A stretch of 64,000 nucleotides of DNA from an uncultured Bacteriovoracaceae bacterium. Its GTDB lineage: Bacteria; Bdellovibrionota; Bacteriovoracia; Bacteriovoracales; Bacteriovoracaceae. The notes under the pieces were generated by a model. That model saw nothing but the letters and a program-made list of their open reading frames with translations. It made no database searches and was not told where the DNA came from. Positions 1 to 50,490 of this stretch are shown piece after piece. Each line of letters begins with the position of its first letter. Positions within the stretch are counted from its first letter, which is position 1. The position numbers and the translations under genes are program-made. The DNA lies in NCBI GenBank assembly GCA_964012805.1, contig CAXGUD010000009.1, positions 32,001-96,000 on the forward strand, in the 5' to 3' direction.

Positions 1-1095
1 GCCGCTAGCTTCGATAATAGAGCTCAAATCCTTTAGAGTTACCCCATGCCCTGAAATTGCAGTTTTCACGACATAAATACCATGGCCAGTTCCTATTTCC
101 ATTTTTTCTGTTTCTGGTCTTACATCACGTTCTTCTAACTCTTCTTTTTTAATTCCAACATACTTCTTCAAAATTAAGTTTTGGGAATCAGCGATCCCAA
201 AAGTTTCAATTAATGAGTTAACTGAACTGCCACCCACAGGAAAAATTTTTAAACCTAAAGAGTAAGCATTCGTAATTTGTGGAAAAGAGTTTTGAGCGTC
301 CATTGCAAAAGAAATTAACCCAAAAGCCTCAATAGTATTATTTTCTGGAAAAAAATTAAACCAAAGAGAACTGGTGGATGAAGCAATTCCTGTTAAAGAA
401 TTATTTTCCTCAACTAGCGCTTTAACATTAGATAAACTCGTTTTCCAGCGGCATGAAAAGCCAAATAAGTTATTAGCAAAACCTAAACTTATTTCTATTT
501 TATCAGGCCTTTTTGCTTCATGATCATAAATCCATCTTATGAGTGACTTTAAAGCGATACTTACCTTAACTTTGTGAAGCATTAGCTTTTTAACTTTTTT
601 AAGAAATTCTTTAAAAAGTTGTTCTAGATCAAATGAGAGTGTCTCTAGACCCGTTATATTATTATGGGCCAAAACTTCTGTTTGTTGAGGAAAGAAAGAG
701 TGTAAACCTCTATCTACACTATCTCCCATTAAATTTACCATGGCTTCAAGAATTAAACTTCCCCTATCGCTAGGTATACTTAAACTAGGAAATGTGTAAT
801 TAGGGGCATCAAGCTTTTTATTAAAATAAACAATTCTAACCCTTCCAGAATTCAAAGCATCAAGAAAGTCTCCGGGAAGACTATCGGGAGCAGTTAGGGC
901 CCAAACAGATGGAATGATTACAGTTGAAACACCATTACTGACAAGGTTGGAGATCTCTTTAACCCAATTACCCTGGTGAGCATTCCACTCAACTATCTCT
1001 ACATCTTCAATAGTCTCTAGAAGCAAATTAAGGTCTTGAAAACTAATTCCTTGACCTAAAACAGACCTTTTACTTACATAGATTGTATGGTTCAT
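1..1095 (-). CDS. Hypothetical protein, runs off the window edge (>=365 aa); not in the supplied ORF track
   Basis: Manual translation gives an open frame from ATG at 1095 (MNHTIYVSKRSVLGQG...) to position 1 with no stop; the ATG overlaps the TGA of the upstream gene (ATGA, 1092-1095). Confidence 0.85.
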   Translation of the reverse strand, partial: MNHTIYVSKRSVLGQGISFQDLNLLLETIEDVEIVEWNAHQGNWVKEISNLVSNGVSTVIIPSVWALTAPDSLPGDFLDALNSGRVRIVYFNKKLDAPNYTFPSLSIPSDRGSLILEAMVNLMGDSVDRGLHSFFPQQTEVLAHNNITGLETLSFDLEQLFKEFLKKVKKLMLHKVKVSIALKSLIRWIYDHEAKRPDKIEISLGFANNLFGFSCRWKTSLSNVKALVEENNSLTGIASSTSSLWFNFFPENNTIEAFGLISFAMDAQNSFPQITNAYSLGLKIFPVGGSSVNSLIETFGIADSQNLILKKYVGIKKEELEERDVRPETEKMEIGTGHGIYVVKTAISGHGVTLKDLSSIIEASG

Positions 1096-4000
1096 TCTTT
1101 TCCCTCTAAATCAACCTTTTTTGAAAAACTCTCAACAGCTTTAACACCCTCCTGAAACTCTTTTTCAGAGACTGATAAAACAAAACGGCAATAATCAGGT
1201 ATACCTGTCCATTCACTACCATTTATAAGGATACCTGTAGAGAAAAAGAATGCCTCGTAAAAATTTTGTGAATTTAAAATATAATTTTTTTCTTCGGAAA
1301 AGTGACTAGAATTAACTGTTATTTTCTTCCCAAAATAACTTCTTGGAGCAGCCACTAAAAAAAGGCCTCCTTCCGCAGGAAGCACATCCCAGCGGGCTTC
1401 CTTAAGCTTTTTAGTTAAAAACAAAGCTCGATTTCTTAGAAGAGATCTTTGCTCGGCCAGAAATGTTACAAGTGAGGGATGTGAATCATTAAACTTCTTT
1501 ATAATCTTCTTCACTGCGTAAAGTGTAGCGAAATGAGGCTCAAATGAATTCATTTCGCTTAAGTTTTTGGCAATTTCTGAATGAGAACAAAGGGCATAAC
1601 CAAAACGTAACCCACCAGCTGCGAAAAGCTTTGAAACACCTCCAAGCATTACCCATTCAAAATCATCATTAAGAACTTTTCCAATTTTTGTCATTTTAAT
1701 TGTAGAATCAAACTCTAAACCATTAAAAACATGGTCCAAAATAAGCCTTGCTTGATGGGACTTGATGACTTCAATAAGCTCAATAATCTCCTCTTCTCTA
1801 TAAAGGGCTCCAGTTGGGTTTACTACTGGAAAGTTTAAAAATACGTATGCTCCTTTTTTATTTTCTAAGGCCTTATTAAGAGCTGATGGGGTAAATTTAA
1901 ATGAATCCTTCTCTTCGGTTGAAAAAGTAGAAGCATCCGCTCCCACAAATCCTGCACAAGCGACAAATTCTCCATAGGCACCCTGTGGAAAAATTATAGG
2001 ATATTTCTCTATTGCACAAATTTTACTCAGGGAGTGAAAAAGTGGCGCAATACCATTGCCATAAATAAATGATTTTTTGTGCAGTTCTCCTCTAGTGAAG
2101 CCAAAAGACTTTTCAAACATTCTTTTTAGATCTTCATCAGGTTCATAATCTTGTTTGTTTAAAGAAAATGGATTTCTTAAAAAGCCTTCAAACAAATCAA
2201 TTCTTAAATCCTTCGGAATAGGAAAACTATTTTCTCCATAGTCAAGCCTTACTGTCTTATCATCACGAGGCAATCTCTCTCTCGCCATTGAAGGGTGCTC
2301 CATCATTTCAACAGCATCTACTGCCAAGGGCTTAAATTTTTTTTCAATATCGTTCGAAACACCTCTTTTAAGAGAAACTTCTTTTTTTTGTCCATCCTCT
2401 AAAAGTCTAAAACTTAATAGTTCATCGAGAAGAACTTCATAATAAAACTGGGTTAAAATTGGTGTTCGACTATAAGATAATTCTGCGGCTGAATTCAACT
2501 GCTGTACTAAAGGAGCGTTTCCAATTAGGGAAAAACAAAGCCTTAAATTTTCATAAACCCTATTTTTAAATAAGTCGCAATTTATAATCACATGATCTGG
2601 CAAAGACTTTTCTCTTAAATAGGAAAGGATTGCATTCTTTTGTGGCTGACTTGAAATATCAAAATAATCAGACATATCCAGGATAAGGCGTGTAGAATTT
2701 TCTTTCGTTACATTAAAAATTCTTTCAACATTTTCTTCCAACTCATTTTCAAAAGTATTAAAAAAACAAACAAGTAAATCTGGTTTTAATTTTTCAACTA
2801 AGTCTTCAATCAACTTTACTCTTCTCGGGCAAGCGAACGACTCTACTTCCCAGGGGTAAAACTCACTCATTCTTTTTAGTTGTGGATCTTGATCAAAAAG
2901 AACTTCATCTATAAGAACTAATTTGGGCCTGTAAAGGAGAAGAATATTATTTATACACTCGTGCCTCGATGGAGAAATTAAAATTTGATCTTGATTGACA
3001 GGCAAATGATAATAAGAAGTCAGAAAGCGCGACAGTTTCATTCTCAATTCAGATCGGCCTTGAGTTTTCTCATAGGGGAGAAGTGAAGGTGATCTTAATA
3101 CTTCAGATAGTTCAGATAAAAAGTTTACTCTTTCCTCAAAAATATCTTTCTCATTAGAGTAAAGGTCCATAAGCTGCTTTGCTTCTGAAAAAGAATCACT
3201 CTCTAAAAAGTTTAAAATGTTCTTCACTTCTCTTCTTTTGGGAAGATGGGCTTCATAAACACTTAACGAATGTGCTATTCTTCCACCATTTTTAGAAAAG
3301 ACCTCTGCTGTTTGGGCATTAATAGGCTCTCTTGCATCAAGACCCATAAAAAACTCAAACTTATGACCCGTCCTTTTTTCAATTTCTACAAGGACTTTAA
3401 TATCAGTATCTTCGGCTTGAAGAACCTTTGTTGACCATAGTTTATTTACTGTAAAACCTCTTCTCTTAAAGAGTTCTTCCAAAATAGCTGTCCCAGGTCT
3501 CCCTCCCAAATTCATTATAACAGACCCTCCTGCCTTGAGAACTTGTAGTGACTCCTCAAGTGCCGAGGCGATTAGCCCTAAACCGAACTCATCTTCAAGG
3601 TGACCTTTGATACTGCAATAATTACTTAAGTCGTAAAGCTGTTCATCGCTTGAATGCTCAGAAATATTTTGGATTAATTTTTCTGGATCAGGGCTTAAAA
3701 CCTGGGGAATACACCCAATAACCTTATCAAGAAATATTTCTTTTTCAATTATGAGAGAAAGAAGGTCACTTTCTTCAAAAAGGACACTCTCCCATAAATT
3801 TTTCCCTGAATAAGTTTTAGCTGCTTTACCATCTTGATCAAACGAATTAAAAGCTAAGTTTAGTTTTGCACAAATTATGGCCCTTGGGTTTATGTCCAAA
3901 CCATAAATAAAATCTAAGTCTGTATTTAAAGCAAGAGATAAACATATCCAGCCATTTCCACAACCCAATTCAGAAATTTTCTTCCCTGTAAAAGTCGAGT

Positions 4001-4319
4001 GCGGCAACCTGGATAAACCTTCATAAAAAGTAAATGACCACTCCTCAGGGGAAAAGATACTAGGGAATTGAATCAACCTAAGTTTATTTCTGTGACCTCC
4101 CAAAAGAATCGTTTTAAAATTAAAGTGATACTTCTCTAAAAAGATGTCTTTATCATTCTCTTTTTCATAGAATTCAAAAAGAAGATTAAGGCACTCGTAG
4201 GTGTTTTTAATTTCCTCTATCTCAGAAGATTCGAATAGAATTCCCTTAAAAGCTTCATAAGCTTTTTGACTGGATAATTCACACTCTTTAAGAAAATTTT
4301 CAATAGAAAAATGGGTCAT
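1092..4319 (-). CDS. mmt: Full-length plant-type methionine S-methyltransferase (class I SAM methyltransferase + PLP aminotransferase-fold region)
   Basis: PSIFSPEEWSFTFYEGL, ELGCGNGW, GLDINPRA, GCIPQVL, LSNYC, EDEFGLGLIA, NLGGRPG, QAEDTDI, FEFFMGL all match plant MMT motifs as I recall them; the C-terminal part has class I aminotransferase motifs (NPTG, ILDHVF, SKxxxxGGLRFG, YCRF); length is similar to plant MMT. Confidence 0.92.
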   Translation of the reverse strand: MTHFSIENFLKECELSSQKAYEAFKGILFESSEIEEIKNTYECLNLLFEFYEKENDKDIFLEKYHFNFKTILLGGHRNKLRLIQFPSIFSPEEWSFTFYEGLSRLPHSTFTGKKISELGCGNGWICLSLALNTDLDFIYGLDINPRAIICAKLNLAFNSFDQDGKAAKTYSGKNLWESVLFEESDLLSLIIEKEIFLDKVIGCIPQVLSPDPEKLIQNISEHSSDEQLYDLSNYCSIKGHLEDEFGLGLIASALEESLQVLKAGGSVIMNLGGRPGTAILEELFKRRGFTVNKLWSTKVLQAEDTDIKVLVEIEKRTGHKFEFFMGLDAREPINAQTAEVFSKNGGRIAHSLSVYEAHLPKRREVKNILNFLESDSFSEAKQLMDLYSNEKDIFEERVNFLSELSEVLRSPSLLPYEKTQGRSELRMKLSRFLTSYYHLPVNQDQILISPSRHECINNILLLYRPKLVLIDEVLFDQDPQLKRMSEFYPWEVESFACPRRVKLIEDLVEKLKPDLLVCFFNTFENELEENVERIFNVTKENSTRLILDMSDYFDISSQPQKNAILSYLREKSLPDHVIINCDLFKNRVYENLRLCFSLIGNAPLVQQLNSAAELSYSRTPILTQFYYEVLLDELLSFRLLEDGQKKEVSLKRGVSNDIEKKFKPLAVDAVEMMEHPSMARERLPRDDKTVRLDYGENSFPIPKDLRIDLFEGFLRNPFSLNKQDYEPDEDLKRMFEKSFGFTRGELHKKSFIYGNGIAPLFHSLSKICAIEKYPIIFPQGAYGEFVACAGFVGADASTFSTEEKDSFKFTPSALNKALENKKGAYVFLNFPVVNPTGALYREEEIIELIEVIKSHQARLILDHVFNGLEFDSTIKMTKIGKVLNDDFEWVMLGGVSKLFAAGGLRFGYALCSHSEIAKNLSEMNSFEPHFATLYAVKKIIKKFNDSHPSLVTFLAEQRSLLRNRALFLTKKLKEARWDVLPAEGGLFLVAAPRSYFGKKITVNSSHFSEEKNYILNSQNFYEAFFFSTGILINGSEWTGIPDYCRFVLSVSEKEFQEGVKAVESFSKKVDLEGKE

Positions 4320-9808: not shown

Positions 9809-10765
9809 ATGAAGCCCTTTCCACTCATTTTGGAGTCCATAAAAGACCTCAGTGAAGGTCAGGTCCAAGATGTTTTTAAGCTTGCCAAATCCTTTAAAAA
9901 TGGTTCTGAACCAGAGGGGGCTCCTTTTTCTTCCAATCTGCCTAAGACAGGAAAAGCTCACTTTCAATCAAAAACTCCTCTTATAGCTACTTTTTTCCAA
10001 GAGCCATCAACTCGAACAAAAAACTCTTTTGCCATTGCAGCAAAAAGGTTAAAAACAGACTATGTCGACTTAGCACCGCAGTCTTCAAGCCTTAAAAAAG
10101 GTGAGGACTTGGAGCAAACCTTCATAACCCTTAAGTATCAGGGTGTTAACCTACTTATTTGCCGATCACCTTTGGAAAAAATAAGTAGTAGGGTCAAATT
10201 ACCAAACGTAGCTTATATAAACGGTGGGGATGGAAAAAATGAACACCCTACCCAAGCCCTCTTAGATGCTTTTTCCATTATAGAAAGCGGTTTGGACCTC
10301 TCTAGGACTACCGTTGCTCTGATTGGAGATGTCCTCCACTCTAGAGTGGCCCACTCCCTGATGAAACTCATCCCTAAATTGGGAGGAAAAGTTTTAATTT
10401 GTGGCCCTAGCGACTGGCTCCCAAAAGAAGACTTAGGACCCTCTATTGAAAGTGTTTCTTCACTTGAAGAAGCCATTCTAAGAGCAGATGTCCTTTATCC
10501 TCTTAGGATACAAAAAGAGAGGCACAAAGGCACCGTTCAAAATGAAGAGTATTTTATTAAGCATTTTAAGGTCAGCTTGAAAAAGCTTAAAGATATGAAT
10601 AGAACCCCTCTTGTCTTTCACGCGGGGCCTTTTAACATAGGAGTAGAAATCGACCAAGACCTTCTCGATTCACCCTTATTTCAAGCATATAACCAAATTG
10701 AAAACTCAATATATATTAGAATGTCCATCATCCAACTCATGTTACAAGAGTTTGGACAATCCTAA
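9809..10765 (+). CDS. pyrB: Aspartate carbamoyltransferase catalytic subunit
   Basis: FQEPSTRT, SSLKKGE, HPTQALLD, GDVLHSRVAHS, LRIQKER. Confidence 0.96.
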   Translation: MKPFPLILESIKDLSEGQVQDVFKLAKSFKNGSEPEGAPFSSNLPKTGKAHFQSKTPLIATFFQEPSTRTKNSFAIAAKRLKTDYVDLAPQSSSLKKGEDLEQTFITLKYQGVNLLICRSPLEKISSRVKLPNVAYINGGDGKNEHPTQALLDAFSIIESGLDLSRTTVALIGDVLHSRVAHSLMKLIPKLGGKVLICGPSDWLPKEDLGPSIESVSSLEEAILRADVLYPLRIQKERHKGTVQNEEYFIKHFKVSLKKLKDMNRTPLVFHAGPFNIGVEIDQDLLDSPLFQAYNQIENSIYIRMSIIQLMLQEFGQS

Positions 10766-10777
10766 AAAGGTAAGATC

Positions 10778-13700
10778 ATGACAACGAAAGAACAATTATT
10801 TTTAGAGTCTTTGGAAAAGACTCCTGGTTTTTTGCACTTTGAAGATGGAACTTCTTTTTCTGGAACACTCAATATTGAAAGCAATGACCCCCGTTTAGAA
10901 AAAGGAATATGGGGGGAAGCTGCTTTTACGACAGGCATGACCGGATACCAAGAAACAATGACGGACCCATCTTTTTTGGGACAACATATTATTTTTAGCT
11001 CACCCCATATTGGGAACTATCCTTCCGATGAAAAAGTAAACCAATCAAATAGTTGTCATGGAACATCGATTATAGCCAAAAGCTTTTCTCCAAATAAGTT
11101 TCTTATGGAATGTGAAGCCCCACTTTTTACATGTCATGATACCAGGGCACTTGTTAAGTTTATAACTGGAAAGAAAGGCAATCATAAATCTGTTATTACA
11201 GTTAACTCGAAAAGCCCCAGTTCCGAAGAGTTTGAGAAAGAGGAACTTAAATGCAACCGATTAGACTTGGTAAGTTCGGAAGGACCCTCAAAAGTCCTTA
11301 CGCCTGGAAAAAACCCTATTGTCCTCATTGATTATGGTTGTAAAAAAGCCATCATAAATAATCTAAAAAACCTAGGGTTTCCTCTCGTTATTGTAGGACA
11401 CAAAACAAAAGCTTCAGAAATTTTAGATTTTAAACCAAGAATGATTTTCCTCTCCAATGGACCTGGAGATCCAAGGTCCTACTCAACTCAAATCGAAGAG
11501 GTAAAGAAGCTGCTCACTTTTCAAATTCCAATAAGAGGAATTTGCCTTGGTCACCAATTAATCACTCTAGCTCTTGAAGCATCTATAATAAAATTACCAT
11601 TTGGCCAAAGGGGTGTTAACCATCCTTGTATCGAACATGAGACTGGTAAAGTTATCATAACCAGTCAAAACCATGGTTACGCTGCTTCAAAAGAAGAACT
11701 TACGAGCAAATTTTCTGCCGAAAATAATATCTTAGGTAAAGAACTTTTTATTTCATATACATCTCTCTTTGATAACTCAGTAGAAGGCATCTCATCAACC
11801 GATCATTTTCTCAAAACAGTTCAGTTTCATCCTGAAGCTTACCCTGGTACACATGATGGAGATGGTTTTTTTAAAGAAATAAAAAATTACCTAACTGAGA
11901 AACAAAACCCAATTGAAGTTTCTAGTCTAGAGAAAGTAGTAGATTTAAGCTCAGGCTACAAGAAAGAAGTCCCTTATTCAAAGGTCCTAATTATTGGTTC
12001 CGGGCCTATAAAAATTGGCCAAGCTTCTGAGTTTGATTATTCAGGAACTCAAGCCTGTAAAGTTCTAATGGCCCTGGGAATAGAGGTTGTTCTTTTAAAC
12101 TCAAACCCCGCGACCATTATGACCGATTCAGAAATGGCCACCAAAACCTACCTTGAGCCTATTACCAAAGAAACGCTCAAAAAGATTGTTGAAAAAGAAA
12201 ATATCCAAGCTGTTCTTTCCACCTTGGGAGGTCAAACGGCACTAAACCTTTGTATTGACCTTGAAGAAGAAGGCTACTTTAAAAAGAACAATGTCGCTCT
12301 TCTTGGCGCGAATACGGATACCATTAGAAAAACAGAAGACAGAGAGCTTTTTGCAAAAGAACTTTTAACACTTGGTTATCACACAGGAGAAAGGTACTCA
12401 GCTTTTAGCCAAGAAGAATGTATACAACTAGCTCATGACCAAGTTGGTTTTCCCCTCATCATTAGAAGAGACTTTGCTTTAGGAGGGAAAGGAGCTGCCC
12501 TTGTTTACAATGAGAAGGAACTTGTCGAAGTCTTTTCAAGCGACATCAAATTTCCCATTACTCTTGAGCGGTCTTTAGTTGGCTGGAAAGAGATTGAACT
12601 CGAAGTCATGGTTGATAAAGAAAAAAATGGGGTTATAATTTGCTCCATTGAAAATATCGATCCATGTGGTGTTCATACTGGAGATAGTATTACAGTTGCT
12701 CCTGCTCAAACGATAAGTGATCAACTATATCAAAACCTTAGGACGATGGCCCTTAATGTAGCAAAACACATGGGTGTTGTTGCCGGCGGAGCAAACGTTC
12801 AGTTTGCTATCAATCCTCATAATGATGATGATATTGTTGTTATTGAAATGAACCCGAGAGTCTCAAGGTCTTCAGCTTTGGCTTCCAAAGCGACTGGTTA
12901 CCCGATTGCAAAAATTTCGGCCCTACTCTCCCTTGGGTATACTCTTAAAGAAATTCTTAACGATATAACAAAAGCCTCTCCAGTAGCTTTTGAACCGACA
13001 CTTGATTATGTAGCTGTAAAAATACCTCTTTTTCCTTTCAGCAAATTTCCAACGTCTTCTAAGGTATTAGGTCCTCAAATGAGATCTGTGGGAGAAGTTC
13101 TGTCACTGGGAAGTACCTTTAATGAAGCTTTTATGAAAGCACTAAGGAGTCTGGAACTAGGACTTGAAATTCCTGAACTTTCAAGGATTCCCAATATACC
13201 ACTTGATTTGAATCAGGACTTTCTAACAAAAAGACTATCTTCGCCCCATCAGTTATCCTTACTAACTTGTATGGAAGCTTTAAGAAAAGAAGTAAGCTTG
13301 AATAAAGTCCACGAGCTTACCCAAATTTCGCCTTGGTTTTTAGAGCAAATTAATGTTCTCGTTAATGCTGAAAATAAAATCAGAAACAGAAAAAATAAAG
13401 AAATTAAAAACATTACCAAAGAAGAGATGCTTTGCTACAAAAAACTAGGGATGAGTGATAAGCATATTGCGACCCTCCTTGAGAAAACTCAAAAAGAGGT
13501 CCTCTCCTTTCGCTTAGAAAATAACCTATCTCCTGTTTATAAAGCAGTTGATACATGTTCAGGGGAATTCTTCGCTGAAACTCCTTATTTTTATAGTACT
13601 TACACCCAAGTTTGTGAAGCATCTCCTTTAAGTAAAAAAGGGAAATCTGTAGCTGTCCTAGGATCAGGTCCTAATAGAATCGGTCAAGGCATCGAGTTTG

Positions 13701-15253
13701 ATTATTCTTGTGTTAAATCGTGCCAACGACTTAGAGAAAAGAATACTCAAGCCATCATGATTAACTCAAACCCAGAAACAGTATCAACTGATTATGATAG
13801 TTCTGACCGCCTTTACCTTTCACCTCTTTACTCGGAAGATATTTTTGATATCCTTCTTCACGAAAAGCCTGACGGTATTATAACTCCCTTTAGTGGTCAA
13901 ACAGGTATTGCTATAAGAGAACACATAGAAAAGAGCTTTAGAAAAGAATTCGCATCCTTTAATTTTTTAGGACCGAACCTTGAAAGCCTCCAGTTGACAG
14001 AAGACAGAAAACTTTTTAGTGACCTTCTAAAAAAAGTTAATATTTCCCAAACAAAAGCGGTGGAGGTTAAGGGCCATAAAGCTCTAATGAACGCAATTAT
14101 AGATGACATAGGCTTACCTGCTATTATTAGACCCAGTTATGTTATAGGTGGTGAATCCATGTATATCTTTAACTCCTATGAAGATACCCGAAAGCTTCCA
14201 CCATCCTTACTTGAACAGCTTGAAAAAAAGGAGACCGTTTTTCAAGTTGAAACTTGCCTCGAAAGAGCAATTGAATACGATGTTGATCTTGTAAGAGACG
14301 AATTTGGAAACACTCTTTTTACAATATGTGAACATATCGAACATGCAGGTGTTCACTCGGGAGACTCAGGAATGATATCTCCCCCAGTAAAATTAACAGA
14401 AAGTATGCTCAAACAAATAGAATCAATCTCAATTCAACTTTCAGAAGCACTCAATATTATAGGACCAATTAACTTTCAATATGCCGTAAAAAATAACGAA
14501 GAAATTTATTGTATTGAAGCTAACCCTAGAGGTTCTAGAACTCTTCCTTTCTTAAGTAAGGCAAATGATATAAGTATTCCTGGAATCGCCACAGATGCCA
14601 TGCTAGGTGAAAGTATTAAAGAATATAAAAAGAAAGATGATCCTCCTTTTTGTGTGAAGCAGTCTACTTTTCCATTTGATAGATTCCTTCAAGACAAATC
14701 AATTCTAGGCCCAAAAATGCGCTCTACTGGAGAAACTTTTGGGATGGATATTGATAAAGAGCAATCCGTCCTTAAATCTTATCTTGGAAATTACCCAAAC
14801 CTACTAGGACCGGGAAAACTGCTGATCTCTCTTGCAGATAAAAATAAAACGGTGATTTTGCCTTACATAAAAACCCTTCATCAAATGGGTTATCGATTTA
14901 TGGCAACTCAAGGAACTTACCAATTTATAAAGAAACAGGGACTCCCTTGTGAAAAAGTAACCAAAATTGCCGACGATACTGGTCTTTCCATTTTAGAAGC
15001 TCTTAAAGATTCGAAGCTTAAAATGGTTCTAAATACCCCGATGAACCCAAAGTCATCTAAATCAGACGGAGAAGAAATAAGAAATACTGCTATTGCTTAT
15101 GGTATTCCATGCTTTACCCGACCAGAAAATATAATCGCCATTATAGAGTCTCTTATTGGCTCTAAAGGAAGTGAGCTTATACCAATAAGCCTCCAGGAAA
15201 AGTTTTTTACACCATCAATAAATAACAATCAGACAACTGAAGGCACAATCTAA
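10778..15253 (+). CDS. carAB: Carbamoyl-phosphate synthase with fused small (GATase) and large subunits
   Basis: CarA motifs TGMTGYQE..TDPS, LSNGPGDP, GICLGHQ, QFHPEA in the same frame as CarB motifs GSGPIKIGQASEFDYSG, IEMNPRVSRSSALASKATGYPIA, GSGPNRIGQGIEFDY and a C-terminal MGS-like domain. Confidence 0.96.
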   Translation: MTTKEQLFLESLEKTPGFLHFEDGTSFSGTLNIESNDPRLEKGIWGEAAFTTGMTGYQETMTDPSFLGQHIIFSSPHIGNYPSDEKVNQSNSCHGTSIIAKSFSPNKFLMECEAPLFTCHDTRALVKFITGKKGNHKSVITVNSKSPSSEEFEKEELKCNRLDLVSSEGPSKVLTPGKNPIVLIDYGCKKAIINNLKNLGFPLVIVGHKTKASEILDFKPRMIFLSNGPGDPRSYSTQIEEVKKLLTFQIPIRGICLGHQLITLALEASIIKLPFGQRGVNHPCIEHETGKVIITSQNHGYAASKEELTSKFSAENNILGKELFISYTSLFDNSVEGISSTDHFLKTVQFHPEAYPGTHDGDGFFKEIKNYLTEKQNPIEVSSLEKVVDLSSGYKKEVPYSKVLIIGSGPIKIGQASEFDYSGTQACKVLMALGIEVVLLNSNPATIMTDSEMATKTYLEPITKETLKKIVEKENIQAVLSTLGGQTALNLCIDLEEEGYFKKNNVALLGANTDTIRKTEDRELFAKELLTLGYHTGERYSAFSQEECIQLAHDQVGFPLIIRRDFALGGKGAALVYNEKELVEVFSSDIKFPITLERSLVGWKEIELEVMVDKEKNGVIICSIENIDPCGVHTGDSITVAPAQTISDQLYQNLRTMALNVAKHMGVVAGGANVQFAINPHNDDDIVVIEMNPRVSRSSALASKATGYPIAKISALLSLGYTLKEILNDITKASPVAFEPTLDYVAVKIPLFPFSKFPTSSKVLGPQMRSVGEVLSLGSTFNEAFMKALRSLELGLEIPELSRIPNIPLDLNQDFLTKRLSSPHQLSLLTCMEALRKEVSLNKVHELTQISPWFLEQINVLVNAENKIRNRKNKEIKNITKEEMLCYKKLGMSDKHIATLLEKTQKEVLSFRLENNLSPVYKAVDTCSGEFFAETPYFYSTYTQVCEASPLSKKGKSVAVLGSGPNRIGQGIEFDYSCVKSCQRLREKNTQAIMINSNPETVSTDYDSSDRLYLSPLYSEDIFDILLHEKPDGIITPFSGQTGIAIREHIEKSFRKEFASFNFLGPNLESLQLTEDRKLFSDLLKKVNISQTKAVEVKGHKALMNAIIDDIGLPAIIRPSYVIGGESMYIFNSYEDTRKLPPSLLEQLEKKETVFQVETCLERAIEYDVDLVRDEFGNTLFTICEHIEHAGVHSGDSGMISPPVKLTESMLKQIESISIQLSEALNIIGPINFQYAVKNNEEIYCIEANPRGSRTLPFLSKANDISIPGIATDAMLGESIKEYKKKDDPPFCVKQSTFPFDRFLQDKSILGPKMRSTGETFGMDIDKEQSVLKSYLGNYPNLLGPGKLLISLADKNKTVILPYIKTLHQMGYRFMATQGTYQFIKKQGLPCEKVTKIADDTGLSILEALKDSKLKMVLNTPMNPKSSKSDGEEIRNTAIAYGIPCFTRPENIIAIIESLIGSKGSELIPISLQEKFFTPSINNNQTTEGTI

Positions 15254-15996
15254 TGAATCAAGTGAACTCCAAAGAGAGCTTAAACAAGGTTATTTTGGCA
15301 GTTGATAACATGACTCAAACCGAAGTAAGAGACCTTTTAAAAAATTGGCCATCCCAAAAAATGCCAGTGGTCAAGATAGGCTTGGAACTTTTTTTAAAAT
15401 ACGGGCAACCATTGGTTCTCGACCTTTTTCATGAGTTTGGAGTAAAGATTTTCTTGGATCTAAAGCTTCATGACATTCCAAATACGGTTGCAAAGTCAAT
15501 ACGAAGCTTAAAAGGTCTTCCCATAGAGTTTTTAACAATACACCTCTCCGGAGGCAGGGAAATGATTCAGCGCGCTCTTAAAGAGGCGAAACTAAACCTT
15601 CCTCACACAAAAGTGCTAGGGGTTAGCCTCCTAACTTCCCTGGATAAAAATGATTTTAAAGAGCTTTGGGACTTTTCTGGAAACCAAGTTGAAAATACAT
15701 TTAAAAACCTCTTTTCCCTTGCTCTAGAACTAGAAGTTCATGGAGTTGTCTGCTCTCCGGTTGAATTAAATTTAATTACATCTTTAGAAAAAAAACATCA
15801 ACGCTCTCTTTTAAAAGTTACCCCTGGGATCCGGTTTGAGGATGAGATTCTCATAGGCTCTATTGGCGACCAAAAAAGAGTCTTATCTCCTGAAGTAGCG
15901 ATTGGTTCCGGAGCTAATTACTTGGTTATTGGCAGATCTCTGACTGAATCCGCTCAACTTGACAAAAGAATTGAACACCTTGCAAACTTAGACTAG
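15253..15996 (+). CDS. pyrF: Orotidine-5'-phosphate decarboxylase
   Basis: FLDLKLHDIPNTV, VTPGIR, DQKRV, VIGR; TAATG overlap with carAB. Confidence 0.96.
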   Translation: MNQVNSKESLNKVILAVDNMTQTEVRDLLKNWPSQKMPVVKIGLELFLKYGQPLVLDLFHEFGVKIFLDLKLHDIPNTVAKSIRSLKGLPIEFLTIHLSGGREMIQRALKEAKLNLPHTKVLGVSLLTSLDKNDFKELWDFSGNQVENTFKNLFSLALELEVHGVVCSPVELNLITSLEKKHQRSLLKVTPGIRFEDEILIGSIGDQKRVLSPEVAIGSGANYLVIGRSLTESAQLDKRIEHLANLD

Positions 15997-39964: not shown

Positions 39965-40642
39965 ATGGCCTTTTTTTGGAGAAGAAAGCATTCTTTAGGG
40001 AGTAATTACCGAGAGGAAATAGTTACTGCAGCACGAAGGCTTTACGACAAAAATATTCTTGCTGCTACTGACGGCAATATCAGCTCAAAAGAAAAAGACT
40101 CCCAAATACTTATAACCCCTTCAGGAAAACAAAAAGCTTTTTTGCGTCCAGAAGAAATTATTCTCTACAATATGAAGGATAAAAACCCTAAGCAAAAAGT
40201 CTCAAGTGAGCTTGCTATGCACCTCCAAATATATAAGAGTTGTCCTAAAGCATCTTTTGTCATACATGCTCATCCTCCTTCGGCCATAGCCTGGACTATT
40301 GCCTTCCCAAAGCTAAAAAACCTACCCTACGATATTCTTCCAGAACTTATTCTCGCTGTTGGTAGCATCCCTTTTGTTCCCTACGCACGTCCCGGAACAG
40401 AAGATATGGCAAAAAATATAATTCCCTACCTACCTCAGCATAAAGCACTTATTTTAACGAGGCATGGAGCCCTTAGCTGGGGAGAAACAATGGAGGAAGC
40501 CATTAATGGTATGGAAAGAATTGAGCATACCGCCCATATCCTTATGATGGCCAAAAAGCTCAGGGGATTGACAACTCTTCCGCAAGATGAAATTCAATAT
40601 CTTCAGGAAAAAAGAAAGCAAATCGGAGATATTAATTTATGA
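39965..40642 (+). CDS. Class II aldolase/adducin family protein (FucA/Ald2-like)
   Basis: DGNIS, ITPSG, SSELAMH, IHAHP, RHG; ATGA overlap with mtnA. Confidence 0.88.
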   Translation: MAFFWRRKHSLGSNYREEIVTAARRLYDKNILAATDGNISSKEKDSQILITPSGKQKAFLRPEEIILYNMKDKNPKQKVSSELAMHLQIYKSCPKASFVIHAHPPSAIAWTIAFPKLKNLPYDILPELILAVGSIPFVPYARPGTEDMAKNIIPYLPQHKALILTRHGALSWGETMEEAINGMERIEHTAHILMMAKKLRGLTTLPQDEIQYLQEKRKQIGDINL

Positions 40643-41658
40643 AAGACCTCGAATCTATGTCACTCAAAGTTGAAAATGGAAAGTTATTTGTTCTTGACCA
40701 GCAAATGCTCCCTCATCAAGAAGACTGGATCGAATCCAAAACACCTGAAGAAATGTCTAAAATTATTCTTGACTTAAAAACTAGAGGTGCTCCTCTCATA
40801 GGAGTCTCAGCTGTTTTAAGCTTGGCCCTTTATGCAGAAAAAGAACCTCATCCTGAAAAAATCATGGCCAAAGCTGAACTCCTAAGAAGCTCAAGACCAA
40901 CTGCTGTAAACCTCATGAATGCGATTGATAGGGTCCTCGAGGTAGGACAAAAGACTCAATGGGATACTCTAGAAATTACGAAGGAAGCTGAAAATATTTT
41001 TGAAGAAGATGTCGAACTTTGCGAGAAAATGGCCTCGATTGGATCTCAACTTATAAAGCCTAATGAAAACGTCCTCACTCATTGCAATACTGGAGGCTTG
41101 GCAACGGTTGGGAGAGGCACAGCTCTAGGAGTTATTTCTAAAGCTTACGAAAACCAAAAAGGAATTCACGTCTATGTAGACGAAACAAGGCCTCTCCTCC
41201 AAGGTGGAAGGTTAACAACTTGGGAACTTGAATCTCTAGGTATTCCCTACACTCTTATTTGTGACAATATGGCAGGACAACTCATGAGCGTGGGTAAGAT
41301 AGATAGAATTTTTGTTGGCGCAGATAGAATTGCTGCAAACGGCGACTTTGCCAACAAAATAGGAACTTACTCCCTTGCAGTTAATGCAAAATTCCACAAA
41401 GTTCCCTTCTACGTGGTGGCCCCCTTCACAACATTCGACAAAAATTGCCCTAATGGCAAAGAAATCCCTATTGAACAAAGGGAGCCAGATGAAGTGAGGG
41501 GCGTAAAAGGAAGTTTTGGCAAAGTTGTTTGGAGTCCCAAAAATGCAGAAACTTATAACCCGGCCTTTGATGTAACCCCGGAAAGCCTGGTGTCGGGATA
41601 TGTCTTAGATAAAGGGCTCTTTAAAGCAAGTGAACTTTCTAAAGCTTTCGAAAATTAG
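40639..41658 (+). CDS. mtnA: S-methyl-5-thioribose-1-phosphate isomerase
   Basis: RGAPLIG, RPTAVNL, LTHCNTGGLAT, DETRPLLQG, GADRIAANGDFANKIGTY, NPAFDVTP. Confidence 0.96.
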   Translation: MKDLESMSLKVENGKLFVLDQQMLPHQEDWIESKTPEEMSKIILDLKTRGAPLIGVSAVLSLALYAEKEPHPEKIMAKAELLRSSRPTAVNLMNAIDRVLEVGQKTQWDTLEITKEAENIFEEDVELCEKMASIGSQLIKPNENVLTHCNTGGLATVGRGTALGVISKAYENQKGIHVYVDETRPLLQGGRLTTWELESLGIPYTLICDNMAGQLMSVGKIDRIFVGADRIAANGDFANKIGTYSLAVNAKFHKVPFYVVAPFTTFDKNCPNGKEIPIEQREPDEVRGVKGSFGKVVWSPKNAETYNPAFDVTPESLVSGYVLDKGLFKASELSKAFEN

Positions 41659-41698: not shown

Positions 41699-42472
41699 TT
41701 AAAAGATAAGGTCCTGCTTCCTCATCCAGCCCTTTTTATTTTTATCAACCTCTATTCTAACCCAGCCTTTTTCGCTTTGATCCTGTAAGTTAACCTCAGC
41801 TCCTTCATGTAGAACAAACAATTTCACATTATCCTTACCAATTCCTGAAAACACAGAAGCCTTCGAAACCTTTACAACCCCAAAATCTCTTTCCCAAAAA
41901 GCATTATTCAAAAAGGGTATAGCGAATAACAAAACAAAAAAGAAAGATAAATTTCGCACCCATTTAAAAGACTCATATTTAAACAACAATTGGAGAAGAG
42001 AGCCAACCCAAAAGAGCACCCAAAAGCCTATTAATAAAGTTGCCGTTTCTTTTTTGTTAAGAGGAAAAAGGCCTCTTGGATCAAGAAAGGGTTTTGATTC
42101 AACTTTATCCTTGGTTTTCGATCTCAAATACTCAAGATTGTATTTAACATCTCCATCTCGCGGAAGAACCTCACTAGATTTCTTGAAATGAAATAAAGCT
42201 TTCCCTAGCTCTCCTGCCCTAAAGTAAGCATTGCCTAAATTGAAGTGGACCTCTCCCCAAATTCTCTCATCAGACTCAAGGAGGCTTTTATACTCCTTAA
42301 TCGCATCACTATATCGACCTTCATAGTAAAATTTATTGGCCTTTAAAAAATCCCCTCGGACTTTTCGAGCTTCACCGTGAGATTCACTTATCACTGAAAA
42401 AAGAATAAAAAATGAAAAAATAACTGAGGTAAAAGTGATTCTTCCTTTATTATTCATCATTAATCTGTTCAT
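41699..42472 (-). CDS. batE: BatE-like TPR + SH3b protein
   Basis: TPR HFNLGNAYFR, two TMs, LHEG...GWM; operon position. Confidence 0.85.
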   Translation of the reverse strand: MNRLMMNNKGRITFTSVIFSFFILFSVISESHGEARKVRGDFLKANKFYYEGRYSDAIKEYKSLLESDERIWGEVHFNLGNAYFRAGELGKALFHFKKSSEVLPRDGDVKYNLEYLRSKTKDKVESKPFLDPRGLFPLNKKETATLLIGFWVLFWVGSLLQLLFKYESFKWVRNLSFFFVLLFAIPFLNNAFWERDFGVVKVSKASVFSGIGKDNVKLFVLHEGAEVNLQDQSEKGWVRIEVDKNKKGWMRKQDLIF

Positions 42473-44361
42473 CTTAATTCCTTTTCCATACTCTTTACTA
42501 TATTTTTCATTTTAGTCATCATTTCTCTTGGGCCTTTTTTAGCTTGCCCTCCATATTGAGCACTTTCAAAATCCTGTAGAAGATTCTTTATTTCTTTTAA
42601 AGTTTCAGGGCCTAATTGATGAGGACTTAAAACCCTATCTAAATCAAGAGGAGTTAAGGCCTTGCCATCAACATTAACTTTATCACCAATATAATCCTTA
42701 AAGACACTAGAAGCTTGTGTTAAAAAATTATTTCCTTCGCCCACACTTTTAAGCCCTTTATTAAATTTCTTTAAAGCCTGTTCCTGCCTTCTTAAGGCGT
42801 CATTGCCTTTAAGCCGTTCCTTCTTTTTTTGCCAAATAAAGCAGGCAACGAAAAGAAGAGGAGGCATAAAAAAAAGAACCCAAAAGATACTTTTTTCATT
42901 TAGCGAGAGACTGCCCAAAGTTTTCTCAACCTTCCTCTTTATGGGCATGAGGTCCTTTCCTTCAACCTTTATCTTTTTTTTCAATTTGGTTTGCGGTAAA
43001 CCTGGAGAGACAAGATTAACTTTTTCTTCATCACCAGACTCTGCCTTTAAAATTTTAACCATAATAGGCCTAGTTGAGGTGGCCTTATAGACTCCACTCA
43101 AGGGATCAAAATAGCTTAAGTTAAAAGCAGGTATCTGTTTCTCCCCTATATCTTGAGGAACCAATGCCATTTTAAAAACACGTTTTCCAAAGACGCCCTT
43201 TTTACTTCTTTGAATTTTTAAAACTGGTTTATCTTTATAAATTTTGAAACCAGTAATTTCTTTTTCATCTAATTTTGCATCAAAGACATTCCCACTTCCC
43301 TGAACAGTCAAAGTAAGAGTTGTCGATTCACCTTGCCTAAGAGAGTCTTTATCAACCCTAGAAATGACCTTGAAATCACCAATAAGACCACTAAAGTTTT
43401 TAGGTTTTCCCTCTTGTGGCAAAGGCTTCGCTTCAATTTCTAAATCTTTAGTCCTAAGGCTTACCCTTTTCCTCCGGCCAAAACCTCCCCCGAAGAAAGG
43501 ATCATCAAACATATCAAAAAGGGAACCTGAACCACGCCCTCTTCCAGAACCATCCCTTATGTAAATATCCCCCAAAAAGGTCGATCCAGGAACTGTCACT
43601 TTTCCAGGCTTCGTAGGGAAAAGGGCATAATTGACTTCATACACTTTCCACTCTTTCCCTTTCACAACTTTTCTATACGACCTTCCCTCACCAAGCTCTT
43701 CCTTCCAAAAATCCTTAAATTTAGGCAAACTTATTTTAGGGTTGCTTATTTCAACACGATAATAAAGCCTAAATGTATAGATGATTTGCTCTCCAACAAA
43801 AGGGTCCTTTTTATTAACAAAGCCTTCTATCAAAAAGTTTTTATCTCTTTTCTCCTTAGCAGGCCCCTTGTGGTCATCAACGCTAGAACTTCCTTTTCCC
43901 TGATTAGGGTTTGAGTTAACAGAAGCTCCGTCTGCAAGCACTTCTAAATTAAGAACGTCACTTTTATATTCTTTTCCATCAATAACAGCGACCACAGGAC
44001 CAACTGTAAAGGATCCTTCTTTTTTAGAATAGAGAGAGTAGTTTATCGTTTTGCTGGTACTAGCTTTACCATTAATTATCTGTACTGATGTTGAAGTTCC
44101 TCTATTGGAAAGAGAAAACTTATCAGCATTTTCAATCCGAAGGGAATCAATACTCTGGGATCCATCAACACGAATCTGAATAGAAAATTCCTCACCTAAA
44201 GAAATAGGGTTTTCATCAACAGTCAACCCAACCTCTATCGCTCCAACCAAAGAGGTCTTCGTCCCCAAAAAAAAGATCAGGAAAACCCAGAGGATTGAGA
44301 AGCTTTTCAAGATAGAAGCTTTGCTCGTCCCGCTTTTCAATTCTTTACCAATCTTTTTCAA
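42469..44361 (-). CDS. batD: BatD family protein
   Basis: STSVQIING, repeated Ig-like units, C-terminal TM; operon position. Confidence 0.9.
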   Translation of the reverse strand: MKKIGKELKSGTSKASILKSFSILWVFLIFFLGTKTSLVGAIEVGLTVDENPISLGEEFSIQIRVDGSQSIDSLRIENADKFSLSNRGTSTSVQIINGKASTSKTINYSLYSKKEGSFTVGPVVAVIDGKEYKSDVLNLEVLADGASVNSNPNQGKGSSSVDDHKGPAKEKRDKNFLIEGFVNKKDPFVGEQIIYTFRLYYRVEISNPKISLPKFKDFWKEELGEGRSYRKVVKGKEWKVYEVNYALFPTKPGKVTVPGSTFLGDIYIRDGSGRGRGSGSLFDMFDDPFFGGGFGRRKRVSLRTKDLEIEAKPLPQEGKPKNFSGLIGDFKVISRVDKDSLRQGESTTLTLTVQGSGNVFDAKLDEKEITGFKIYKDKPVLKIQRSKKGVFGKRVFKMALVPQDIGEKQIPAFNLSYFDPLSGVYKATSTRPIMVKILKAESGDEEKVNLVSPGLPQTKLKKKIKVEGKDLMPIKRKVEKTLGSLSLNEKSIFWVLFFMPPLLFVACFIWQKKKERLKGNDALRRQEQALKKFNKGLKSVGEGNNFLTQASSVFKDYIGDKVNVDGKALTPLDLDRVLSPHQLGPETLKEIKNLLQDFESAQYGGQAKKGPREMMTKMKNIVKSMEKELR

Positions 44362-46276: not shown

Positions 46277-46300
46277 GGGGTTTCTCCTCGTTCTTTTTTT

Positions 46301-47290
46301 TTAAGGAATTCTTCTCAACTTTGTTTGCCCTAAAAATATTTCCAAGAGTAAAATAAAGAGTCCTGGAATTAAAAAGTGGGCGAACATTTCATTGTATTCT
46401 GTGTATTTTTTGACCTCAATTTTAGTTTTTTCTAACTTATCAATTAGGCTGTAAATATTTTTAAGTTCGTCAGTGTTAGTAGCTCTAAAGTACCTTGCTC
46501 CAGTCTCAGAGGCGACTTGTTTAAGAGTTGATTCATCTAAGTCCACTTTTTGGTAAATATAGCGTTTTCCAAAAAGAGTATCTGCTAAAAAAGGTGCCTT
46601 CCCCTGGGTCCCAACACCGATGGTATAAACTTTAACTCCGTAATGATCGGCAAGTTTAGAAGCCTGTAAGGGGCTCAAACGCCCAGCAGTATTTCTTCCA
46701 TCAGTGAGAGCAATCATTATTTTTGACTTGGACTTTAGGTCCTTCATCCGGTTTACGCCAATACCAATGGCCTGTCCCAAAGCCGTGGCTGATCCGGCCA
46801 TACCTATTTTTATGTTGTCAAGAAAGTCCATGACAATACCGTGGTCAAGAGTCAATGGACATTGTGTGAAAGCTTCCTCACCAAAAACAACGAGCCCAAT
46901 TCTGTCATTGGGTCTCTTTTTAATAAAGTCTCTTACCACCTCTTTAACGACTCTCAAACGGTTAACTCTCTTTCCTTCTCTCTTAAAATCTAAGGCCTGC
47001 ATACTTTCGGAAGTATCGAGAACAAGTAATATGTCGACGCCTTCTGAATTCGTTTTTGTAAACTGCCTTCCTGACTGTGGTCTAGCAAGTGCTACAACAA
47101 GAAGAATAATGGCCAGAGACCGTAGAATAAGAAGAATTAATTTGGGATTATTTCTCGCTCTCATATTCATTGATTTCAGGAGGTCAATACTTGAAAAGCG
47201 AATCTTTCCTCCACTTTTTTGCCCCCAAATAAAAATAGGGACAATAACTAAAAACAAGCATAAAAACCATGGGTAAGCCAGACGGATCAT
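46301..47290 (-). CDS. batA: BatA VWA-domain protein
   Basis: ALARPQ, DTSESM, RPNDRIGLVVF, TQCPLTLDH, LTDG, YTIGVG, IDKLEK. Confidence 0.92.
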   Translation of the reverse strand: MIRLAYPWFLCLFLVIVPIFIWGQKSGGKIRFSSIDLLKSMNMRARNNPKLILLILRSLAIILLVVALARPQSGRQFTKTNSEGVDILLVLDTSESMQALDFKREGKRVNRLRVVKEVVRDFIKKRPNDRIGLVVFGEEAFTQCPLTLDHGIVMDFLDNIKIGMAGSATALGQAIGIGVNRMKDLKSKSKIMIALTDGRNTAGRLSPLQASKLADHYGVKVYTIGVGTQGKAPFLADTLFGKRYIYQKVDLDESTLKQVASETGARYFRATNTDELKNIYSLIDKLEKTKIEVKKYTEYNEMFAHFLIPGLFILLLEIFLGQTKLRRIP

Positions 47291-50476: not shown

Positions 50477-50490
50477 TTCATTTCCATGAT

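Follow-up and report, generated by a model that had tools for sequence, protein, structure and literature searches.

Bacterial Group III proteins form a published family of plant-like Met S-methyltransferases (MMTs) (Peng 2022, PMC9135737). Homologues of full length are described there from Oligoflexia and Deltaproteobacteria, as the original prediction for the present gene had suggested. Group III enzymes are characterized by a C-terminal aminotransferase-like region and a total mass of about 115-120 kDa. DMSP was made by one of four tested Group III strains, and the use of S-methylmethionine (SMM) by these bacteria was called 'difficult to predict' (PMC9135737). Two questions are touched here, the purpose of the aminotransferase-like region in plant MMT and the fate of SMM in Group III bacteria. 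We analysed a Group III gene in a window of 64,000 nucleotides, which is the whole stretch of DNA studied. The split between Lys-bearing and Lys-lacking enzymes, the predicted one-site pseudo-dimer and the nested origin of the plant enzyme are the new points.

Gene and domain organization

The MMT gene occupies 1092..4319 on the minus strand of the window, as do all features below. Its ORF, read from 4319 to 1092, encodes 1075 aa with zero internal stops. The assignment is based on the ORF, on homology and on an AF2 model with a mean pLDDT of 91.7 and a pTM of 0.89. Every motif cited in the original prediction is found in the translation, namely LILDMSDYF (residue 545), LFKNRVY (583), NPTG (834), ILDHVF (860), GGVSKLFAAGGLRFG (893) and YCRF (1043). 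The proposed likeness to plant MMTs extends over the whole length, at 34-37% identity in a comparison with 120 MMTs of land plants. Among named relatives the Pseudobacteriovorax MMT is closest (45% identity over 1027 residues), and with it our protein forms a clade of support 100/99, and plants fall within the same main clade. Its length fits Group III, of which the gene is an ordinary member. The family spans at least eight phyla and is found, among others, in Bdellovibrionota, Gammaproteobacteria, cyanobacteria, Bacteroidota and Acidobacteriota. DNA of our organism is found in marine samples.

By its sequence the product is a Group III MMT, in which an MmtN-like domain precedes two aminotransferase-fold units arranged in tandem, and it is predicted to form SMM. 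An N-terminal helical region (residues 1-75, 4095..4319) evolves faster, with a dN/dS of 0.14, and is unmatched in a divergent clade (L073-L080). It is followed by the MmtN-like SAM-dependent methyltransferase domain (residues 76-360, 3240..4094), with a match to the MmtN structure 7vvv over residues 89-322 (E value 2e-10). The MmtN residues used for comparison were taken from PMC9135737. The GxGxG motif at 119-123 (G119, G121 and G123), D142, S184, L186 and C203 are each present in 121/121 homologues and in 120/120 plants. At the positions of two of the Met-binding residues of MmtN (E127, R132 and E250), S209 and K214 are found in a gapped stretch, where plants have Asn and Ala; E322 is invariant and lies two residues off the match to E250. 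PLP-fold unit 1 (residues 376-640, 2400..3194) is truncated, without the C-terminal half of the small domain, and its own lysine position is variable. PLP-fold unit 2 (residues 660-1075, 1095..2342) is a complete class I aminotransferase-type subunit, of which residues 749-1060 match PF00155 at an E value of 9e-30.

Predicted PLP site in unit 2

Unit 2 contains most of the class I aminotransferase residues, namely the Lys and following Arg, the Asp, the Asn of NP(T/S)G, the ring-stacking aromatic residue and the carboxylate Arg. In alignments with solved class I aminotransferases, Lys897 (1629..1631) falls on the Lys of their S-K and is the predicted Schiff-base lysine, in agreement with the original prediction. 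From the alignment, Arg905 (1605..1607) is the predicted phosphate-binding arginine, Arg1045 (1185..1187), also retained in 115/120 plants, would bind the substrate α-carboxylate, and Tyr782 (1974..1976), replaced by Asn in 114/120 plants, is the predicted PLP ring-stacking residue. The N834-P-T-G motif is located at 1809..1820, and Asp862, the putative partner of the pyridine nitrogen, lies with Phe865 at 1725..1736. A motif at the putative substrate entrance, R691-L-D-Y-G-E-N697 (2229..2249), is near-invariant in bacteria and gone in land plants.

These residues were counted in a set of 121 homologues with 37-45% identity, to which the query itself, two relatives closer than that and two proteins labelled as rotifer also belong. 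K897 and D862 are found in 120/121 of them, and N834, R905, R1045, Y782 and Y416 in 121/121 each. Among 81 locus rows, all 76 that cover the lysine column have K897. In the wider tree, 80 of 82 non-streptophyte rows, clades near 28% identity included, have both the Lys and the Arg; the lysine column is altered in one rotifer, one amoeba and one metagenome protein. Based on sequence, an intact PLP site is thus a family-wide feature of bacterial Group III MMTs, found in nearly all members. The catalytic-looking domain pointed out in the original prediction is real, but it is not peculiar to this gene. A live PLP site in the bacterial enzymes is well supported by this conservation. Our search found no published description of an intact PLP site in a Group III MMT, within a literature coverage that is incomplete and lacks key works.

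One class I residue is missing in unit 2, the Tyr three positions after the pyridine-nitrogen Asp. This position, which hydrogen-bonds O3' of PLP, is Tyr in five aligned class I structures and Phe in 3ftb. It is Phe865 here, and Phe in 120/121 homologues. The substitution is a point absent from the original prediction. In addition, Ala758 stands where class I enzymes have a phosphate- or substrate-side residue.

Tandem duplication and a proposed composite active site

The two PLP-fold units proposed earlier are recovered, with an hhalign probability of 94.9 between unit 1 and unit 2. Unit 1 reaches 97.8 against ordinary aminotransferases, and its model matches aminotransferase structures at an E value of 6e-11, GabR-type domains being among the matches. 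The C-terminal region is, on this comparison, a tandem duplication. Unit 1 has a dN/dS of 0.042 and unit 2 one of 0.067. In the model, unit 2 superposes on 6f77 with a Z score of 41.7 and an rmsd of 2.6 Å over 385 residues, and by structure subgroup I-beta transaminases (Z 41.7) rank above ACC synthase (36.7) and C-S lyases (36-37).

In unit 1 the lysine position is occupied by Lys (45), Asn (33), Arg (26) or His (8). In class I aminotransferases one tyrosine of the PLP site comes from the partner subunit. Unit 1 carries the motif of this tyrosine, and unit 2 has no such motif of its own. Tyr416 of unit 1 (3072..3074) is found at the position of this tyrosine and is invariant (121/121). A second partner-subunit loop, E613-x-x-Y616-S617-R618 (2466..2483, with a register uncertainty of ±1), is invariant or nearly so in bacteria and decayed in land plants. 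The loss is reciprocal between the units, with unit 2 retaining the PLP residues of a subunit itself and unit 1 only those that a partner would contribute, which implies one composite active site per chain. Several structural alignments place residues 415-422 of the model on the N-terminal segment of a chain whose other parts align with unit 2. Read indirectly from these alignments, the 415-422 loop of the model would lie against unit 2.

Fate of SMM and possible reactions at the PLP site

The query genome (100% complete) has no MmuM-type homocysteine S-methyltransferase; its sole PF02574 match is a 1236-aa MetH, and the mmuM cut-off was reached by 0 of 11 segments scored. Thus SMM would need another fate. 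Among 50 carrier genomes, 35 have nothing past a MetH-type match and 13 have a YitJ-type homocysteine methyltransferase, which might recycle SMM in those carriers. Around 80 loci no conserved partner genes (decarboxylase, aminotransferase or dehydrogenase, as in Group I mmtN clusters) are found, and the query genome has no close homologues of the Group I partner enzymes, the best matches having 27-30% identity. With these results and a single DMSP-positive strain among four, the DMSP-type pathway suggested in the original prediction is weakly supported. Some Group I clusters hold a separate PLP aminotransferase; the mmtN-linked one of L089 scores 84 bits against unit 2, and a housekeeping one scores 121 bits.

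The likeliest reading, to which we give a probability of about 0.45, is that the query MMT makes SMM and transaminates it, using one PLP site to which both units contribute. Unit 1 would take the place of the other subunit in an aminotransferase dimer and supply unit 2 with Tyr416 and the E613-R618 loop. Lys897 would bind PLP, Arg1045 would hold the substrate carboxylate and the invariant acidic and aromatic residues D693, Y694, E696, E613 and Y616 would hold the sulfonium. Deprotonation at C-alpha of SMM would then give 4-dimethylsulfonio-2-oxobutyrate. This compound is labile. Hosts that have a decarboxylase or reductase able to act on it could turn it into DMSP; in all others it would shed DMS. 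SMM as the substrate is inferred only from the domain fusion and from charge. We count against SMM transamination Phe865, Ala758, the L089 enzyme being no nearer to unit 2 than the housekeeping one, the one DMSP-positive strain in four, the unlinked partner genes, the YitJ-type enzyme in 13/50 carriers and the pocket residues retained in plants.

The main rival is a DMS-releasing elimination, which we consider rather unlikely. Methylation makes the thioether a good leaving group, and SMM, once deprotonated at C-alpha, could lose DMS by gamma-elimination to give 2-oxobutyrate and ammonia, vinylglycine or, as in ACC synthase, ACC. This would be a one-protein route from Met to DMS, or from Se-Met to dimethylselenide. 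It needs no partner genes and suits the three of four strains without DMSP; with the unit-2 profile, the scores of ACC synthases (92-96 bits) come just below those of the best transaminases (97-120). The top NCBIfam match is GntC, a cyclodehydratase, although far under its cut-off (79 vs 415 bits). The structural ranking, however, puts transaminases above ACC synthase and the lyases, and Glu at 696 is found in ordinary I-beta transaminases too. Placed by what we take to be the offset of the ACC synthase Gln from the partner-subunit Tyr, residue 414 is Phe (77), Leu (34), Ile (5) or Tyr (4). Thus the Gln defining ACC synthases (Q98 of AtACS7, PMC8580319) has no counterpart. In favour of elimination, ACC synthase is described (PMC1282579) as using the same fold on a sulfonium amino acid, with the sulfonium served by an acidic residue and with a Tyr contributed by the partner subunit, and the title of Ko 2004 names SMM as an ACC synthase substrate. 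It is quite improbable that a live site acts at an earlier step or on a different amino acid, for example converting 4-methylthio-2-oxobutyrate from methionine salvage to Met that feeds the methyltransferase. The methionine-aminotransferase model PRK09082 gives a weak match (E 2e-10), the fold is shared with I-beta transaminases of broad specificity and an mtnB/mtnA-like pair, its gene names inferred from Pfam families, lies on the same contig at 39965-41658. But SMM would be left without a fate where genomes lack MmuM, the invariant acidic residues would fit a cation better than neutral Met and at least four further class I enzymes are encoded in the genome.

A GabR/MocR-like allosteric sensor that binds PLP and Met, SMM or SAM with no productive turnover is decidedly improbable. 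Such a role is consistent with the deviations at Phe865 and Ala758, the GabR-type matches of unit 1, the lysine column altered in three proteins and the retention of the whole region with several pocket residues in plants after lysine loss. MocR sensors keep the lysine as well. Nevertheless, near-absolute conservation of the full catalytic set over at least eight phyla, down to about 28% identity, is typical of enzymes. Very improbable, finally, is an SMM decarboxylase forming DMSP-amine, or a decarboxylating transaminase forming DMSP-aldehyde, with one promiscuous aldehyde dehydrogenase finishing DMSP. Phe is found at the 865 position in 3ftb, and the decarboxylase CobD has Phe at the equivalent position. 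For plant DMSP synthesis a decarboxylase/transaminase step is drawn in PMC5395565. The query groups with Pseudobacteriovorax, the sole DMSP-positive genus among those tested; the query genome encodes a BCCT carrier and gives 13 matches to aldehyde dehydrogenases, and its DNA occurs in marine samples. In PLP enzymes the carboxylate geometry decides between C-H and C-COO cleavage. Invariant Arg1045 should favour the former, known SMM decarboxylases have another fold and three of four strains lack DMSP.

Origin of plant MMT and implications

As the original prediction suggested, plants lack the lysine: it is found in 0/120 land-plant MMTs by two alignment methods and in 0/4 Mesostigma and Closterium proteins. 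Plants nevertheless retain D862, N834, R1045 and W1037, so the conservation may in part reflect structure or ligand binding. Streptophyte MMTs nest within the clade bearing Lys and Arg (AU p=0.0014), in an LG+G4 tree of 33 rows, mostly metagenome proteins, with the tested group named after the first tree was seen. Because of this nesting, plant MMT is likely a decayed copy of a Lys-bearing bacterial-type enzyme. The suggestion that the protein represents the ancestral state of plant MMT is supported for the character, but not for the query, whose own branch is not sister to plants. Such an enzyme would have been transferred into early streptophytes, after which the PLP site decayed.

It is possible, though doubtful, that Group III MMTs in general are single-chain two-step sulfonium enzymes, which methylate Met, degrade the product at the composite PLP site and release DMS (or DMSP-aldehyde) with no partner gene. 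If so, DMS or DMSP would have a source not counted so far, present in both marine and freshwater bacteria of at least eight phyla. Surveys of genes for DMSP and DMS production would be missing a widespread enzyme if SMM is turned over at the site. The C-terminal region of plant MMT, roughly 700 residues, would be the decayed remnant of a two-step enzyme. The history of plant SMM metabolism would then run from a bacterial gene to streptophyte algae and the loss of a second activity, and this early-streptophyte loss would have let SMM accumulate, enabling the plant SMM cycle.

Comparison with known systems

The Group III MMT of Pseudobacteriovorax antillogorgiicola has the same architecture and Lys897 motif, is likewise unlinked to pathway genes and shows no essential difference. 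Plant MMT (EC 2.1.1.12) shares 51-55% identity in the methyltransferase domain and all checked methyltransferase motif residues, whereas land-plant enzymes have Lys897 in 0/120, Arg905 in 8/120 and Tyr782 in 1/120, and motifs 691-697 and 616-618 are gone. The plant SMM cycle couples MMT to HMT; in the query genome an MmuM-type HMT is missing. MmtN (Group I, PDB 7vvv; Group II) has a homologous methyltransferase domain with GxGxG and the equivalents D69, S101, L102 and C121, but is a 300-aa single domain with separate decarboxylase and aminotransferase genes, and its Met-binding E127 and R132 appear to be kept neither in the query (S209, K214) nor in plants. ACC synthase (EC 4.4.1.14) has the same fold, a sulfonium amino-acid substrate and the ring-stacking Tyr, at 92-96 bits to the unit-2 profile; unlike the query, it has the O3' Tyr and the defining Gln, and its structural rank is lower (Z 36.7). 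Unit 2 superposes with Z 40-42 on subgroup I-beta aminotransferases for prephenate, aspartate or aromatic substrates (6f77, 5wmh, 1gd9, 4my5), with the Lys, Asp, Asn and both Arg in common but only 17-19% identity, and with Phe at 865 in place of their Tyr. Those enzymes are homodimers with two sites, whereas the query is a predicted single-chain pseudo-dimer with one.

Gene identity and the predicted PLP site

The plant-type methionine S-methyltransferase (MMT) gene encodes 1075 residues at window 4319..1092 (-), with every motif of the original prediction in place and Lys897 at codon 1631-1629. Residues 89-322 match the solved MmtN structure 7vvv (E 2e-10), and similarity to class I aminotransferases lies in the C-terminal part. 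Lys897 had been proposed as the Schiff-base lysine and indeed falls on the S-K of solved class I aminotransferases. Across the query plus its 120 top homologues, Lys897 and Asp862 are each kept in 120/121 and Asn834, Arg905, Arg1045 and Tyr782 in 121/121; the single Lys897 exception is a rotifer-labelled protein. Lysine is also found in all 76 locus rows covering this column (81 locus rows in all), and Lys and Arg occur together in 80 of the 82 non-streptophyte rows of a wider set reaching down to ~28% identity. For part of the site we take the residue roles to be those generally known for the fold. The others were assigned from aligned solved enzymes and from the ACC-synthase descriptions in the available text of two papers (PMC1282579, PMC8580319). 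The observation itself, a plant-type bacterial MMT with PLP-site residues, is real.

Among named genome records a Halobacteriovoraceae MAG comes closest (89%), and the query DNA is present in marine metagenomes. Four RNA-library contigs (151-258 nt, three studies) lie within the gene, a weak hint of expression since such contigs cannot exclude DNA. Scanning species genomes yielded 110 relatives, of which 80 were kept; these come from Bdellovibrionota, Pseudomonadota, Cyanobacteriota, Bacteroidota, Acidobacteriota, Planctomycetota, Myxococcota and Actinomycetota. The gene is patchy in the query's own family (3/121 genomes searched); even so, its GC3 of 0.27 agrees with the 0.25-0.30 of four neighbouring genes, and a recent transfer into this genome is unsupported.

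Several homologues depart from the common form. Thirteen proteins of 1240-2450 residues form a divergent clade (P0216, P0226, P0227, P0229, P0231, P0233, P0236, P0241, P0244, P0248, P0249, P0250 and P0252); most have 300-900 added N-terminal residues with no Pfam match there, all keep Lys and Arg, and P0249 carries an additional methyltransferase-like stretch near residue 2050. P0197, a 1091-aa JGI metagenome protein of a divergent clade, has neither Lys nor Arg, an independent loss of the PLP site. At locus L071 (6992-10049) the homologue is broken into two frames at about residue 576, either by an assembly error or as a broken gene. Full-length MMTs also occur in records labelled Rotaria (P0057, P0108) and Mastigella (P0151); one Rotaria copy keeps Lys and the other has Glu, and the Mastigella copy is without Lys. 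These may be additional transfers into eukaryotes followed by decay, with contamination possible.

Two-unit architecture

Two PLP-fold units had been predicted, and both were recovered. The AF2 model of the query (pLDDT 91.7, pTM 0.89) superposes over residues 660-1070 (unit 2) on subgroup I-beta aminotransferases with Z 41.7 and rmsd 2.6 A over 385 residues. Residues 376-645 (unit 1) are a second, truncated copy, with a probability of 94.9 against unit 2 and 97.8 against 14 ordinary aminotransferases; a model built for unit 1 alone hits aminotransferase structures (E 6e-11, ~250 columns). Unit 1 is variable at its own Lys position and misses the C-terminal small-domain half. What it retains is Tyr416 (121/121) together with the E613-x-x-Y-S-R618 loop, the two pieces of the active site contributed by a partner subunit; in unit 2 the corresponding Tyr motif is gone. 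The decay of the two units is reciprocal. In seven structural alignments the unit-2 match includes model residues 415-422, which places this loop against unit 2. Sequence and model together point to a one-site pseudo-dimer, whose composite active site would be built from both units. Both are under strong purifying selection, with dN/dS against the 89% relative of 0.042 for unit 1 and 0.067 for unit 2 (methyltransferase, 0.036).

Loss of the site in streptophytes

As originally predicted, plant MMTs lack the lysine: it is found in 0/120 land-plant MMTs, gathered with a Selaginella query, by both MAFFT and HMM alignment. Arg905 is kept in 8/120 and Tyr782 in 1/120. A lysine one residue downstream (59/120) was weighed as a displaced catalytic residue and dismissed, because it replaces the Glu of most bacteria and of 39/120 plants and is accompanied by Arg in only 7/59. 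The land-plant proteins P0279-P0397 keep Asp862 (119/120), Asn834 (95/120), Arg1045 (115/120), Trp1037 (115/120) and Tyr416 (101/120), and the unit-1 lysine position, variable in bacteria, is fixed as Lys in plants (114/120). These retained residues may mark a ligand-binding pocket.

In its available text, PMC6284425 describes MMT as absent from algae and places its origin in the land-plant ancestor. In contrast, we found full-length homologues in the streptophyte algae Mesostigma (P0154, P0267) and Closterium (P0147, P0264), with the lysine already gone (4/4). Closterium retains Tyr782 along with the greater part of the 616-618 motif, which would represent an intermediate stage of site decay.

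After the motif columns were taken out, a single clade (100/99) unites Mesostigma, Closterium and land plants within the main Lys-bearing clade (97/89) in an LG+G4 tree of 33 rows rooted on five divergent Lys-bearing homologues; the rows are mostly metagenome proteins taken as bacterial, with one rotifer-labelled row. FastTree on 94 rows gives the same placement. A grouping of the 22 other main-clade rows, chosen once the first tree had been seen, was rejected (AU p=0.0014). By this topology an intact PLP site would be the ancestral state, and its loss would date to the streptophyte stem or earlier. The suggestion that the query shows the ancestral state of plant MMT therefore holds in part: streptophytes are nested among Lys-bearing proteins, but the query's branch is not the donor.

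Gene neighbourhood and fate of S-methylmethionine

At the 80 loci no sulfur or DMSP gene recurs beside MMT and no neighbour recurs across lineages, in a scan of 95 proteins (chosen non-redundantly out of 145 adjacent genes, plus a few more). Neighbours track lineage synteny (cytidylate kinase, ribosomal genes, response regulators); aldehyde dehydrogenase-family (L059), nitrilase-family (L028) and sulfur-transport (L048) genes appear once each. A 1266-aa gene with no Pfam match (window 1095..1 (-), continued at locus L086, 15299-19096) has a start overlapping the MMT stop (ATGA), as does a 1259-aa gene at L001. It is probably local context, since no such neighbour cluster turns up again elsewhere among the loci. 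Promoter and terminator scans stayed at chance level, and phage records gave no match.

The query genome, 100% complete by markers, holds a single homocysteine-methyltransferase domain, within MetH; the search for mmuM found none. Fifty carrier genomes, many of them MAGs, were chosen from the 80 loci to spread over taxa, with homocysteine-methyltransferase classes assigned by frame length and score and checked on 11 segments. A single MetH-type match was found in 32, none in 3 and an added YitJ-type protein in 13; two have an extra small HMT-like protein under the mmuM cut-off. The unpublished carrier-genome row G014 is also included in alignments A2 and A3. As carriers mostly have MetH only, a plant-type S-methylmethionine (SMM) cycle is not the rule among them and SMM needs another fate. 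The query genome has no match to PF16867, the DMSP lyase family covered by the search, best matches of only 27-30% to the partner enzymes of Group I, 13 aldehyde dehydrogenase matches and one BCCT carrier. Its one Cys/Met-lyase family enzyme could also act on SMM. DMSP as the general end product is not supported.

Proposed reaction

The likeliest reading, which we put tentatively at about 0.45, is that MMT would methylate Met to SMM and the composite PLP site would then transaminate SMM. It is favoured by the fusion, the closest fold, the invariant carboxylate-binding Arg, the invariant acidic and aromatic residues on the substrate side and the absence of any other sink for SMM. The same carbanion could instead eliminate DMS. 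This main rival is unlikely: ACC synthases score closely behind and, by the title of one paper, accept SMM, but their defining Gln is missing here.

SMM is probably the substrate of the predicted site, and a PLP site working on another substrate seems improbable. Phe865 in place of the O3'-bonding Tyr (120/121) and Ala758 in place of a usually polar residue count against catalysis. PLP binding at the site and turnover of some substrate are very probable, and a C-terminal region acting purely as a sensor is quite improbable. Least probable of all, decarboxylation at the PLP site would be a rather remote outcome.

Other genes in the window

Class II aldolase and IF-2B family genes at 39965-41658, 36 kb from the MMT gene, are likely the methionine-salvage pair mtnB-mtnA. 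A nitrogen cluster (58918-63631 (-)) encodes an ammonium transporter, a response regulator, a 348-aa glutamine synthetase and a 521-aa glutaminase with EF-hand and ankyrin domains; the short synthetase and the ankyrin glutaminase have what we take to be a eukaryote-like look. A Bat-type operon (41699-51480 (-)) contains MoxR AAA ATPase, DUF58, VWA/TPR and BatD genes. Pyrimidine genes at 9809-15996 comprise an aspartate carbamoyltransferase-like ORF, a 1491-aa ORF resembling, as read from the sequence, a fused carA-carB, and OMP decarboxylase.

Comparison with known MMT and MmtN systems

The comparison with Group I mmtN, the short bacterial type, rests on five loci; no Group I locus was found among 401 genomes of one phylum. 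In the metagenome loci L089 (3-5861) and L090 (1-2579) a class II aldolase-family gene adjoins mmtN, and L089 also has a class I aminotransferase. The latter bears no special resemblance to unit 2, and a Rosetta-stone link was rejected. The aldolase would be a candidate decarboxylase of the SMM-derived 2-oxoacid; its identification as DsyD was rejected, as DsyD belongs to another family according to the available text of PMC11306096. Its close homologues (46-50%) occur in 3/50 genomes searched and are absent from the query genome.

In the open literature we found no account of an intact PLP site in a bacterial MMT, nor of the split between Lys-bearing bacterial and Lys-lacking plant proteins, the proposed tandem one-site design or the nested plant origin, although prior mention is possible.

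The query gene is a member of published Group III, which in the available text of Peng et al. 2022 (PMC9135737) unites plant MMT with plant-like MMT from certain Deltaproteobacteria and Oligoflexia, in line with the full-length homologues originally expected there. The same text links no DMSP, NRPS or Met-cycle genes to Group III, reports DMSP from one strain out of the four examined (Pseudobacteriovorax antillogorgiicola) and judges the role of the group hard to predict. A protein labelled Pseudobacteriovorax has 45% identity to the query over 1027 residues and groups with it in the tree. Set against MmtN as described there (PMC9135737), the query keeps the SAM-binding residues but appears to lack the Met-binding E127 and R132, and the same is true of plants.
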